Assembly: GCA_964355645.1 (NCBI GenBank)
Contig: CAYHDI010000001.1
Span: 158,897-200,938 of the forward strand
Origin: an uncultured Candidatus Saccharibacteria bacterium
Lineage (GTDB): Bacteria; Patescibacteriota; Minisyncoccia; Phycocordibacterales; Zambryskibacteraceae
DNA length: 42,042 nucleotides
Reading direction: 5' to 3'
A program made the position numbers and the translations under genes. The notes beneath the pieces were generated by a model that searched no databases, was not told where the DNA came from, and saw only the letters and a list, made by a program, of their open reading frames with translations. Shown here piece by piece: positions 1,563 to 32,990 of the stretch (positions within the stretch are counted from its first letter, which is position 1; every line of letters begins with the position of its first letter).

Positions 1563-1600
1563 ATACGCTATAATTTATCTATAGCAAAAATATAGCGTAT
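1563..1600. repeat. 38-bp palindromic direct repeat, copy A (overlaps ATG of the PaaX/Cas2-like gene)
   Basis: ATACGCTATA-18nt-TATAGCGTAT; 32/38 identical to 2181-2218. Confidence 0.9.
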
Positions 1601-2165
1601 GGGCAAGTTAGAAGAGGGGAATAAAATAAGAATCAGAAGACGAGATTTACAACATGCAGTTTTGAATGCTGTTAAAATTACTGGTGTTTTAAGTATTGGA
1701 TTACTTGCTCCAAATGTGATTGGGGCGATGAGCAAACTCGGTATATTACCGAAACCACGACAGAAAGAATACGTGTCCTCTTCTGCTTCCAAACTTGTTA
1801 AACGTGGTTTACTTAAATTTGAAAATGGTCATTATAATCTCACAATTTCTGGAGAAAAACTTTTGCGTCGTTGGGAATTGGAAGATTATAAAATTAATAG
1901 ACCGAAGAAATGGGACAAAAAATGGCGAGTGATTATCTTCGATATTCCAGAAAAAAAGAGAAAAATGCGTCTGCAAATATCGTATCTTTTCAAACAATCA
2001 GGATTATATCGTTTACAGGATAGTGTTTGGGTTTATCCGTATGATTGTGAAGATATTATTGGACTATTGAAAACTGATTTCGGAGTAGGGAAGGATGTTT
2101 TGTATTTAATTGTTGATGAAATTGAAAACGATCGGCATTTGAAGGAAGAATTTCATCTTATATAA
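1599..2165 (+). CDS. PaaX-like protein: winged-helix region plus Cas2/VapD-like ferredoxin-fold domain
   Basis: LVKRGLL..YNLTISG wing; WDKKWRVIIFDIPE..GLYRLQDSVWVYPYD as in the PaaX central domain / Cas2-like fold. Confidence 0.8.
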   Translation: MGKLEEGNKIRIRRRDLQHAVLNAVKITGVLSIGLLAPNVIGAMSKLGILPKPRQKEYVSSSASKLVKRGLLKFENGHYNLTISGEKLLRRWELEDYKINRPKKWDKKWRVIIFDIPEKKRKMRLQISYLFKQSGLYRLQDSVWVYPYDCEDIIGLLKTDFGVGKDVLYLIVDEIENDRHLKEEFHLI

Positions 2166-2180
2166 ATTTGATATCCATTG

Positions 2181-2218
2181 ATACGTCATAAGTTGTCTAT
2201 AGCAAAATTATAACGTAT
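2181..2218. repeat. 38-bp palindromic direct repeat, copy B (15 nt after stop)
   Basis: ATACGTCATAAGTTGTCTATAGCAAAATTATAACGTAT. Confidence 0.9.
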
Positions 2219-2234
2219 AATGAAAGAAAATAAT

Positions 2235-2258
2235 AAAAACTCCCGAAAGGGAGTTTTT
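2235..2258. terminator. Bidirectional intrinsic terminator
   Basis: AAAAACTCCC-GAAA-GGGAGTTTTT. Confidence 0.8.
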
Positions 2259-2311
2259 GATGTGATATAGTTATTTATGGCATCTTTGCCATTTATCAAA
2301 TTTATACATTT

Positions 2312-2683
2312 ATGGATCAAACAAATCAGATTTCTGACCAGACTCAACTTGCTCCGCTCGCGTTACGAGTTATAACCTTACTCGGACTTATTGGAGCAGT
2401 AATCGGTATTCTTGCAAGCGCAGGAGGAGTTTTTCTTTTTGGTTTTAGTGCTGGGTTGTTTTCTTTGCTCGCTATTTTTGCCTTGGCAAAAAACGTTTTT
2501 CTTTTTGTAGCTCTTATGGCCTTAAGAAAAATGAAAAAATGGGCGTTCTATGTGTTTGGAATAATAGCCCTTCTGAATGTTATTTTACTCATTACAAGTT
2601 ATTCTCAAAATCAAATAATCGAAGTTGTTGTCGAAGTTATCTTCTTTGTTTATCTTTGGACACTCAGAAAGAGGTTCGTTTAA
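2312..2683 (+). CDS. Hypothetical four-helix membrane protein
   Basis: 123-aa ORF with about 4 hydrophobic segments, followed by a hairpin near 2706-2733. Confidence 0.75.
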   Translation: MDQTNQISDQTQLAPLALRVITLLGLIGAVIGILASAGGVFLFGFSAGLFSLLAIFALAKNVFLFVALMALRKMKKWAFYVFGIIALLNVILLITSYSQNQIIEVVVEVIFFVYLWTLRKRFV

Positions 2684-2804
2684 CTCATGGTTCAAGAAAA
2701 CGAAAACAAAACTCCCCATGGGGAGTTTTGTTTTGTTGCTTTTTTTGGTTAATTGATGTAATCTTGTGCCAGCAGGAAACTGCCTTTTATTTTTCTAAAA
2801 TCAC

Positions 2805-31396: not shown

Positions 31397-31957
31397 TTAT
31401 TTCAAAATACAGCGATAAATAGCTATTTCATTTAGATTGTCATCCAAATTTGGTCTGGGGAATGATTTGAATTTTGTACAAGAGGTTTTAAAAATTTCTG
31501 AATCAAAATAAGCTTCAAATCCTGTGTCGTGTATATTTTGTTCCGGATATTCTCCGACCCGAGCGATGAGATAAACACCGTGGGCCACAGCGTTTTTTGA
31601 TATTTCAGTTCGATTGTGTGTCCCCGCAGCGAAGTTTTGAGTATTGGTATCAATTTTATTATCGAAGATCACTCGACCTGATAGAAGGGCCACGAGCGGA
31701 GCAACTTCCTGAACTCCATAAACTGGAAAACCATCCGGAAGGATCTTGAGAACACTCGCGATTTCTGAAGGATTTTCGAACACACCTTGCGGAGCATAGG
31801 TGTTTGTATAAGTGGCAACCGGATAAATGCTTATAAAAACATAAAGAAGAATAAATCCCCAAGCGAGTTCCTCTGTTTGTTTATCAAGATAAGAAACAAA
31901 TTCTACCGCGAGAAGCACGACGAATGGCAAGAGCAAATGAAGATAAAGATAGTACAA
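31397..31957 (-). pseudogene. C-terminal fragment of a membrane glycosyltransferase (GT-C/ArnT-like)
   Basis: Begins mid-TM region ([11 protein letters not shown]) followed by a soluble domain; matching N-terminal fragment upstream on the same strand. Confidence 0.55.
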
Positions 31958-31963
31958 ATCTCT

Positions 31964-32110
31964 ATGAAAAAGAAAATCAGAGTCGGTATCTTATTTGGAG
32001 GCAAATCAGCCGAACACGAGGTTTCTTTGCTATCTGCTAAGAACGTGGTTAATGCTCTAGACAAAAACAAATACGATCCCGTTTTAATTGGTATAACCAA
32101 GAAAGGCAAA
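31964..32110 (+). pseudogene. ddl: N-terminal ~49 codons of D-Ala-D-Ala ligase
   Basis: [31 protein letters not shown]; ends abruptly. Confidence 0.9.
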
Positions 32111-32434
32111 TCTGTTTTCTTTCTTTTTAAGAATTAAATAAATAAGTATTGCAGAGAAACTGTCAAATAAAACTGGAATAATTTTGAACAAAATAATATT
32201 TGAACCAAAAATAAATTTAAATCCAGAAAGTAAATAGATGAAGAATGGTGGATCAGCCAGGAAAAAATCCTTGTATGGGATGAAACCAGAGAGAATCGCC
32301 TGGGTCATGTAGAAATACACATTTTCATCTCCAAATCTAAAGTGGATACTCGAGAGTTTCCATAGGGCAAAAGCCAAGACCGCGAGCAGAGTGATGATTA
32401 AACCCTTTTTGTCAGATAAAGATTTGATAATAAT
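32105..32434 (-). pseudogene. N-terminal fragment of a GT-C/ArnT-like glycosyltransferase
   Basis: GDE..Y, G.IPYKDFF..DPP motif; no ATG at the expected start behind TATAAT. Confidence 0.7.
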
Positions 32435-32494
32435 AAAATTATAATCTTTCTAACTATATTCACAACTCAATCATTTGATTTTTATGCTATACTA

Positions 32495-32520
32495 ATAACA
32501 TACGATATATCGTATGTTAT
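32495..32520. repeat. Perfect 26-bp palindrome, copy A (overlaps ATG)
   Basis: ATAACATACGATATATCGTATGTTAT. Confidence 0.97.
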
Positions 32521-32950
32521 GCCACATATTTCAAAAAGAAATTTACGATTAAAACAATTAGAAAATCTTCAATCCGAACTTTTAAATTCCGTTGAGCGTT
32601 CATTTGATAATAACAAAGGAAGACAAGTTTGGGGAGAATTTTTCTCCCGAACTGAAAGGATTATGTTTGCCAAAAGGCTAGCCGTGATCGCCATGCTTTC
32701 CAAAGGTGTATCAGCGCACATGATTGCTGAGGCACTAGGAATGAGCCCATCCACAACTGAACGGATGTCTATACAATACGAAAAAGGGAAATATTTTTAT
32801 ATTATCAAAGAGGCTCTAGGCAAGAAGGATGTTTGGGATATTATCCAAGATATTTTAACCGTGGGAGGTATTATGCCGCCCAGAGCCGGCGGGAAGCGTT
32901 GGAGATCATTTGATAAAGCTGTCCGTAAAGATAAACTTAAAAATAGTTAA
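32519..32950 (+). CDS. TrpR/YerC-YecD-like helix-turn-helix protein
   Basis: FSRTERIMFAKRLAVIAML..GVSAHMIAEALGMSPSTTER. Confidence 0.8.
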   Translation: MPHISKRNLRLKQLENLQSELLNSVERSFDNNKGRQVWGEFFSRTERIMFAKRLAVIAMLSKGVSAHMIAEALGMSPSTTERMSIQYEKGKYFYIIKEALGKKDVWDIIQDILTVGGIMPPRAGGKRWRSFDKAVRKDKLKNS

Positions 32951-32964
32951 AAACGGTTAATGAG

Positions 32965-32990
32965 ATAACATACGATATATCGTATGTTGT
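32965..32990. repeat. 26-bp palindrome, copy B (14 nt after stop)
   Basis: ATAACATACGATATATCGTATGTTGT; 25/26 identical to copy A. Confidence 0.97.

Follow-up and report, generated by a model that had tools for sequence, protein, structure and literature searches.

Introduction

What is a gene doing with one copy of a palindrome at its start codon and a second copy just behind its stop codon? The question is raised twice by a 42,042-nt stretch of DNA, called the window below (G000:C1:158897-200938), from the genome of an uncultured groundwater bacterium (Candidatus Saccharibacteria), G000, which comprises 549,535 bp in nine contigs. One of the two bracketed genes encodes a PaaX/Cas2-like protein and the other a TrpR-like protein, and we refer to the two site-gene-site units as Paa1 and Trp1. 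A first, sequence-only reading of the window had taken them for minimal mobile cassettes that are lost by recombination between their repeats, leaving a solo palindrome behind.

Here, we examine this proposal by comparing the two units with their paralogues in the genome and with homologues in related genomes and metagenomes. The site-gene-site bracket turns out to be a family trait in two unrelated protein families, far beyond chance. As its best explanation we propose, with a probability of about one half, a self-contained, autorepressed cassette with a second operator for looping or insulation, portable over evolutionary time. Recognisable regulators are very few in the bacteria of this radiation, which cannot yet be manipulated genetically; in open-access papers and preprints we found neither the architecture nor these families in Patescibacteria described.

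Results and Discussion

The PaaX-like gene occupies positions 1599-2165 of the plus strand, with the stop codon TAA at 2163-2165, and is framed by rpsG (1028-1498) and fusA (2805-4973); a 123-residue membrane-like open reading frame (ORF) also lies next to it. Its upstream site (1563-1600, plus strand; repeat family D13) is a 38-nt nested palindrome with TATAAT in the left arm, and the last two bases of the site are the AT of the ATG at 1599. The downstream site (2181-2218, plus strand) begins 15 nt past the stop codon, in the same orientation, and is 84% identical to the upstream copy. It is followed after about 17 nt by a terminator-like hairpin that closes the cassette (2235-2258); the scan lists this hairpin on the minus strand, and on the plus strand its inner stem runs, by eye, into TTTTT. 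Another terminator-like hairpin, an 8-pair stem with a T-rich tail (1529-1547, plus strand), stands after rpsG and just 5′ of the cassette.

The TrpR-like gene (32519-32950, plus strand), with its ATG at 32519 and its stop codon at 32948-32950, lies in the convergent spacer before rplT. Here, the upstream site is a perfect palindrome of 26 nt (32495-32520, plus strand; repeat family I4) that likewise ends in the AT of the start codon, with a TATACT hexamer 2 nt upstream of it. The downstream site (32965-32990, plus strand) begins 14 nt past the stop codon and matches the upstream copy at 25/26 positions. The repeat listing gives the two as a 27-nt pair (32494-32520 and 32965-32991, 96% complementary), and the listing and the letters themselves bear out both brackets as first described, in position and in sequence.

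As to the proteins, the 188-residue product of the first gene was said to be PaaX/Cas2-like, and this holds, with a match to Pfam PaaX_M (PF20803) of 62.1 bits (E 5.2e-17) against a cut-off of 24. It is not a full-length PaaX: the NCBIfam PaaX model TIGR02277 matches only residues 56-157, with 26.1 bits against a cut-off of 264.55, and compared with the 316-residue chain of PDB 8a39 the C-terminal domain is absent. An AlphaFold model (mean predicted local distance difference test score 77.6) consists of a winged helix, a linker helix and a beta-alpha-beta-beta-alpha-beta domain; with this model, Foldseek gives E. coli PaaX as the top match (8a39, E 8.2e-5) and also lists Cas2 chains. The assignment of the 143-residue helix-turn-helix protein is weaker, since it falls just under the Pfam cut-off for Trp_repressor (PF01371; 26.0 bits against 27) and reaches only 13.9 bits against the cut-off of 42.2 for TIGR02531 (yecD_yerC). 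A profile of its family finds the putative Trp repressors 3frw (E 2.4e-4) and 3kor (E 3.2e-4) in the PDB. By these matches the protein is TrpR-like, and membership in the TrpR or YerC-YecD family is not established.

The bracket is by no means confined to the window. The genome holds four PaaX-like paralogues (100, 72, 69 and 51% identity) and three TrpR-like ones (100, 52 and 49%), and in each of the seven one palindrome stands at or close to the start codon while its second copy follows soon after the stop codon, with a sequence type peculiar to that paralogue. When the 70 nt upstream of every ORF were scored against the 70 nt downstream, the seven took ranks 1-5, 10 and 11 among 653 ORFs, with scores from 27 to 16.5 (genome median 7, 95th percentile 11). 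The other high ranks went to an IS200-like transposase, a DUF559-like gene, GIY-YIG-like genes and a promoter motif.

A downstream repeat is also general among the homologues. In 41 related genomes, 17/19 PaaX-like genes are bracketed, down to 32% identity (the exceptions are L012 and L017), as are 8/8 of the TrpR-like genes analysed, the ninth locus (L049, no tblastn hit) having been dropped. The same applies to most of 178 further loci. Among species genomes, 562 of 564 candidate stretches encode PaaX-like relatives; the best 80 loci were taken and 78 were usable, of which 56 lie above the 99th percentile of a null built from mismatched upstream/downstream pairs (17.5; null mean 8.5) and 62 score at least 16, with a median of 22. 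Metagenome contigs supplied 549 PaaX-like relatives and 72 usable loci; 61 of these score at least 16, and 34 exceed a null that is inflated by relatedness. Across the class, TrpR-like genes are present in 54/401 genomes, and of 28 usable loci 17 lie above the 99th percentile and 24 score at least 16. The bracket is kept across a whole bacterial class, and it looks like a portable self-regulating unit more than an element shown to be mobile. Public contigs that hold the closest relatives carry the labels Zambryskibacteria, Parcubacteria or Patescibacteria and derive from groundwater and comparable sources.

We now consider what the two copies have in common. In 51 ungapped PaaX-like pairs, the identity between the upstream and the downstream copy of the same gene is 0.9-1.0 at positions ±1-4 and ±11-18 from the centre, falls to 0.6-0.7 at ±7-10 and is at a background of about 0.3 beyond ±19, symmetrically on both sides. 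The 20-nt flanks are at the level of the null (0.284 vs 0.280 and 0.313 vs 0.307). Between homologues, the site types vary in the outer arms and in the core, while the two copies belonging to one gene agree. In the three species with syntenic Trp1 orthologues (74-76% protein identity), each copy retains 24-26 of its 26 bases, and the spacer between site and stop codon varies. The cassette sites of the genome start with ATACG or ATAAC; ATACG-type sites number seven here, four in G005 and three in G014, the only congeners with such genes. In the other 19 genomes, single ATACG-type matches occur in two, without the central palindrome, and reversed-pattern controls gave none.

Because the agreement between the copies is symmetric and footprint-like with sharp edges, both resemble sites bound by the gene's own protein. 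The identity pattern is that expected of a dimeric protein touching successive helix turns and therefore speaks against a recent duplication or an RNA stem. Tandem duplication, or target duplication with extra bases, was rejected for lack of any similarity past the site edges.

The position of the upstream copy suggests which function such binding would have. It ends at most 3 nt from the ATG in 44/62 PaaX-like and 10/24 TrpR-like pairs, and its right half contains a -10-like hexamer in 35/62 pairs, compared with 18/62 for the downstream copy (Fisher p 0.0035). This geometry is compatible with a promoter lying under the site and an mRNA with a short leader or none; from it we infer self-repression, with the upstream Paa1 site as a putative operator over the gene's own promoter. 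At the other end, the downstream neighbour is convergent at 46/76 PaaX-like and 13/28 TrpR-like loci. Since the next gene so often points towards the cassette, the downstream copy is better seen as part of the gene's own module, and its use as an operator of the next gene was rejected as a general rule.

It is important to note that the units come and go between close relatives. The rpsG-fusA spacer (window 1499-2804) is a hot spot of gene flux: among congeners (loci L023-L043, two of them unreadable) it measures 16-112 nt in ten, is occupied by small unrelated genes in five and carries the PaaX-like unit in three. In G001 the unrelated genes are ORFs of 70, 134 (aspartyl-protease-like by eye) and 89 residues; G013 has a pilin-like ORF at this place, and G009, G019 and G021 have other small ORFs. 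No conserved downstream partner gene was seen at the rpsG locus of the three carriers (G000, G005 and G014). Similarly, the convergent spacer after rplT contains the TrpR-like unit in three genomes and in one an ORF resembling a transposase of the RAYT type (REP-associated tyrosine transposase, where REP stands for repetitive extragenic palindrome) between palindromes of its own, and at 13 of 21 loci it is only a short spacer before a beta-CASP gene. At the locus of the paralogue Paa3, the flanking genes are 13-18 nt apart in G001, G004 and G010, which are clean empty alleles, and the flanks of Paa2 are contiguous in G012.

In the protein tree, the PaaX-like copies of G000 and G005 form three pairs. 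One pair is syntenic at rpsG; in the other two, homology extends over site and gene only and the flanks are unrelated. The four closest metagenome relatives of the PaaX-like gene (99, 82, 80 and 77% identity) all sit in the rpsG-fusA spacer, and this position must thus be old or repeatedly used. Judged from these alignments, the units are accessory and multi-copy, occupy intergenic hot spots and appear to have been relocated as units over evolutionary time.

Two side observations concern these loci. A small ORF after the TrpR-like unit (window 33065-33250) has, by eye, nearly the same promoter-plus-start as one that lies between rpsG and fusA in G009 (L029), and it is another small gene found in different hot spots. 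In G005, an otherwise full-length PaaX-like match (L021, C36) contains an in-frame TGA, and single in-frame stops, TAG and TGA, are also present in the EF-G genes of G005 (fusA, L168) and G016 (fusA, L162); these may be assembly errors, pseudogenes or recoding.

The observations to be explained are accordingly the architecture, its conservation, the co-variation of site and gene, the footprint-like constraint, the overlap with -10-like hexamers and the accessory distribution. The unit that we propose consists of an operator/promoter, a leaderless or short-leader ORF and a second operator, and terminator hairpins often close it. Its protein would presumably be a dimer, formed via the Cas2-like domain or as a TrpR-like dimer, and would bind both palindromes. 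At the upstream site, it would cover its own -10 box and transcription start and in this way repress itself. The downstream site could be an auxiliary operator that loops to the promoter site, or alternatively a roadblock that would keep convergent and read-through transcription out of the cassette, and inside it. Because regulation and insulation would travel with the gene, the unit would work wherever it lands, and such a position-independent design fits the accessory, multi-locus distribution in hot spots.

Several observations are easier to understand if sites and genes are actively dispersed, and they weigh against the dual-operator cassette. The distribution is very patchy, with PaaX-like carriers in three and TrpR-like carriers in four of the 21 congeners, and in the species tree (993 columns from S7, L20 and EF-G) the sister of each carrier lacks the unit. 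The two sites of a unit are mostly in direct orientation, in 30 cases against 9 inverted in a diverse set (39 clear cases) and in 27 against 1 in a closer metagenome set (n=28). A promoter scan found no more sigma-70-like sites than in shuffled sequence. Moreover, the downstream copies are not significantly more symmetric than the upstream ones (Wilcoxon p 0.12 and 0.065); with nothing more than this non-significant trend, the idea of a strong auxiliary operator is not supported, and a stronger, more symmetric downstream operator was rejected. The remaining points concern palindromes that occur without a gene.

The solo palindromes noticed in the window at 10961-10983, 11010-11047 and around 21764 are all present, and two different things have to be separated here. 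The palindromes of the form TTAGCAAGAA-n3-TTCTTGCTAA had been regarded as scars of lost cassettes, and this part of the proposal fails: they are REPs of IS200-like (RAYT) transposases. The TTAGCAAGAA type has 13 copies in the genome. The REP_A copy at 10961-10983 and a diverged REP_A copy at 21765-21785 belong to the RAYT/REP system rather than to the cassettes. Four copies surround an ORF for an IS200-like Y1 transposase and two of these bracket it, and two further Y1 ORFs are bracketed by two other palindrome types. The three ORFs match Y1_Tnp with 26.0, 25.8 and 46.6 bits (cut-off 23), and neither cassette protein gave a match to this HuH domain. In the region with the four REP_A copies round the Y1 ORF (G000:C2:983-2720), two copies lie inside ORFs and encode NLARTVLA.

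The palindrome at 11010-11047, on the other hand, is an orphan 38-nt site of the PaaX type, with TACAT...ATGTA outer arms and a GCTATAGC core, 28 nt from a REP. Its arm type occurs in none of the four PaaX-like paralogues of the genome, and similar sites are found at L053, L058 and L066. Each regulator has between 0 and 4 further sites of this solo kind. Some are promoter-proximal, such as C1:1031, which is 46 nt upstream of the gene for a 202-residue membrane protein, and C2:72594, just upstream of the promoter of a DoxX-like gene. Others lie between convergent genes, and one is inside a miaA-like ORF; neither position suggests an obvious operator role, which again is easier to reconcile with dispersal. 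The same holds for the proximity to REPs, as 3/7 PaaX-type solo sites are 3-38 nt from one of 23 REPs (binomial p 0.0035), compared with 0/14 gene-flanking sites within 2.5 kb of one. Finally, a block of about 108-113 nt made up of a REP and a solo Paa3 site was probably inserted, because it is absent both from the sister genome G001 and from G004, which belongs to another clade.

Two stacks of palindromes should be mentioned at this point. At G000:C1:16987-17091, three of them share 105 nt, namely a REP_B copy, a Paa1 solo site and a degenerate Trp1-like site, and the surrounding 2.5 kb has no match in G001. In the window, two terminator-like hairpins of 29 nt (9833-9861 and 11073-11101; 97% complementary, family I3) bracket the genes at 9877-10919 together with the palindrome stack at 10961-11071.

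These findings lead to the first alternative, that of a selfish element in Paceibacteria built like a REPtron. A REPtron is a RAYT (IS200-like Y1) transposase gene bracketed by its REP palindromes (PMC2817692, PMC3733652, PMC3116915, PMC3337134). Without any HuH transposase, the cassette protein would here recognise the bracketing palindromes as ends, and the unit as well as single sites would be moved or copied via the Cas2-like domain or by host enzymes, seeding hot spots beside REPs. The three REP-bracketed Y1 ORFs of the same genome have a matching architecture, and the multi-copy, patchy genes have carriers scattered over the species tree. Two of the three nearest pairs between G000 and G005 share the site and gene only, sites occur only where the gene does, and a Cas2-type aspartate, D115, is invariant in 17/17 PaaX-like sequences. 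The absent REP plus Paa3 block, the enrichment of solo sites beside REPs and the orphan at 11010 without a cognate gene point the same way.

Against this mechanism, no catalytic domain is visible in the TrpR-like protein, and the copies are old. Within the genome, paralogues reach at most 72% identity, and neither there nor among the 549 metagenome relatives was a near-identical copy found in a second context; the only near-identical metagenome copy (99%) is at the same rpsG-fusA locus, and the next has 82%. The three Paa3 empty alleles and the one for Paa2 contain no solo site, and at the Paa3 locus the edges of the insertion are about 80 and 55 nt outside the sites. A target-site duplication of a transposon was rejected as well, with 9/39 site pairs inverted and no copy in the empty rpsG-fusA, rplT, Paa3 and Paa2 alleles. 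No pseudogene remnants were detected at solo sites (best tblastn E 0.017), the solo sites per regulator are few, and scans of IMG/VR with family alignments gave no relatives of either family, which is weak evidence in view of the narrow patterns used. A joint between 1563-1600 and 2181-2218 was not among the 15/36 joints listed from the Logan contigs of four runs (window 500-12000), which carries no weight in either direction, since contigs drop rare variants; the joints listed have short sides of 20-35 nt with 90% likeness and probably stem from other organisms. The RNA run reaches rpsL/rpsG and not the cassette, and is equally neutral.

Of the original mobile-cassette proposal, the recurring and accessory unit, the hot spots, the solo sites and the relocated homologues thus survive, and site-to-site loss does not. 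Recombination that leaves one site is not supported: the empty alleles at four loci are all siteless, the ten short rpsG-fusA spacers and the gene-less rplT spacers included. The insertion edges outside the sites, the inverted pairs and the lack of near-identical copies in other contexts count against it as well. What keeps mobility as such in play is that the units are patchily distributed, that nearest homologues are not syntenic and that solo sites are associated with REPs; we consider it rather unlikely.

The second alternative is an ordinary regulon, in which a neighbouring gene or small RNA under the same repressor uses the downstream copy as its operator or promoter and the solo sites are further members. 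The promoter-proximal solo sites at C1:1031 and C2:72594 agree with this, and around the downstream Paa1 site the best sigma-70-like match (10/12) is formed by this copy together with the bases that follow it. Downstream copies also carry a -10-like hexamer in the left half in 19/62 pairs, in addition to the 18/62 in the right half. However, a neighbour's operator is hard to combine with the frequent convergence of the next gene, with the missing partner gene at the rpsG locus and with a terminator-like hairpin only about 17 nt behind the downstream Paa1 site, and this makes the regulon quite improbable as the explanation.

The palindromes could also act as RNA, with hairpins at the 5′ and 3′ ends of the mRNA that govern stability, termination or translation and that are kept alike by gene conversion, without protein recognition. 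Both copies could be transcribed, and as RNA the 26-nt Trp1 site would fold into a stem of 13 bp, with the AU of the start codon in it; roles of this kind have been ascribed to REP-type palindromes (PMC3733652). Yet a stem needs pairing and not identity between copies, whereas sequence identity with a period of about 10-13 bp and a weaker middle is what we observe. The site type co-varies with the protein, gene-less congeners lack the sites, solo copies lie far from the gene, and in many homologues the predicted start codon is inside or after the upstream site. We therefore hold this to be very improbable. Finally, chance, or a leftover of tandem duplication with the downstream copy as the promoter of a lost second gene copy, is hardly credible, since a few solo or downstream copies followed by ATGGG, as at a gene start, stand against a bracket at well over a hundred diverged loci in two families, with a similarity that stops at the site edges and enters neither the gene start nor the flanks.

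Some further features of the window and the genome are recorded here. A motif of about 26 nt, TAGTTCGAT..ACTCACTATAAATAA (families D3/D5), recurs between ribosomal-protein genes at 20653-20688, 23029-23057, 23588-23623, 24570-24605 and 25035-25070, and also at G000:C2:124910 and 127230. Its core, ACTCACTATA, resembles that of T7-type promoters, and the motif may be an operon-internal promoter or a processing signal. Runs of the AAAGTC/GAAAGT type at the ends of ribosomal-protein genes (D1/D2; 999-1037, 7388-7425, 7974-8011, 18045-18073 and 18387-18424) probably encode lysine/serine-rich tails. At G000:C1:153583-154103, two small minus-strand ORFs that by eye look like a HicA/HicB-type pair lie between the copies of a perfect direct repeat of 22 nt. 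The window also contains a tRNA-Ile with the anticodon TAT (39367-39441), which is uncommon in bacteria, where AUA is usually read by a lysidine-modified CAT anticodon.

The units yield many putative natural protein-operator pairs, with a readable site of 26-38 bp, clear co-variation and a compact, apparently position-independent design. If the dual-operator cassette is correct, it represents a simple natural insulation for a gene dropped anywhere, even into the rpsG-fusA operon, and offers a ready set of orthogonal repressor/operator parts. If instead the units are mobile, they would join RAYT/REP as a second kind of replicator made up of a protein and its palindrome and would help to explain the gene flux at hot spots in minimal genomes. 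In either case, the specificity code of a whole family should be readable from sequence.

Comparison with Known Systems

The closest counterparts are the REPtrons, of which true examples exist in the same genome. Common to both are a single gene between two cognate palindromes, solo intergenic copies and one palindrome type per paralogue. The cassette proteins differ in being winged-helix plus Cas2-like or TrpR-like helix-turn-helix proteins without an HuH/Y1 domain. REPs are described with a GTAG or CGTC tag at one end (PMC3733652). They are also described as abundant, whereas the cassettes have 0-4 solo copies per protein. Their upstream copy furthermore overlaps the start codon and -10-like hexamers, as an operator would.

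A repressor gene between two sets of its own palindromic sites, one of them at the promoter, is also found in phage lambda, where CI connects OL and OR by long-range looping over 2317 bp (PMC2685085). At the sequence level the cassettes have the same arrangement, and the gene would lie within a loop of a few hundred bp. Unlike CI, they have one site per side instead of triple operators, encode proteins unrelated to CI, and lie beside rpsG/fusA and rplT without a prophage context or IMG/VR relatives. Auxiliary operators are familiar from lac and gal.

PaaX (8a39) itself is the phenylacetyl-CoA-responsive repressor of the paa operon. The cassette protein shares its N-terminal winged helix and central Cas2-like domain; it ends after the latter, and no paa genes were seen nearby in the window, the part of the genome searched for them. 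For PaaX, too, the sites are inverted repeats, with a few turns between them.

Integron gene cassettes (attC) and the pdif modules of Acinetobacter plasmids, lastly, are small, mostly single-gene units with imperfect palindromic sites that gather in hot spots, and the present cassettes resemble them in being small, palindrome-bounded and concentrated in such places. The attC and pdif sites are served by a shared recombinase (IntI or XerC/D) and do not co-vary with the cargo gene. Here, in contrast, the site type is particular to each cassette gene, and the cargo in every case encodes the protein presumed to bind the site.

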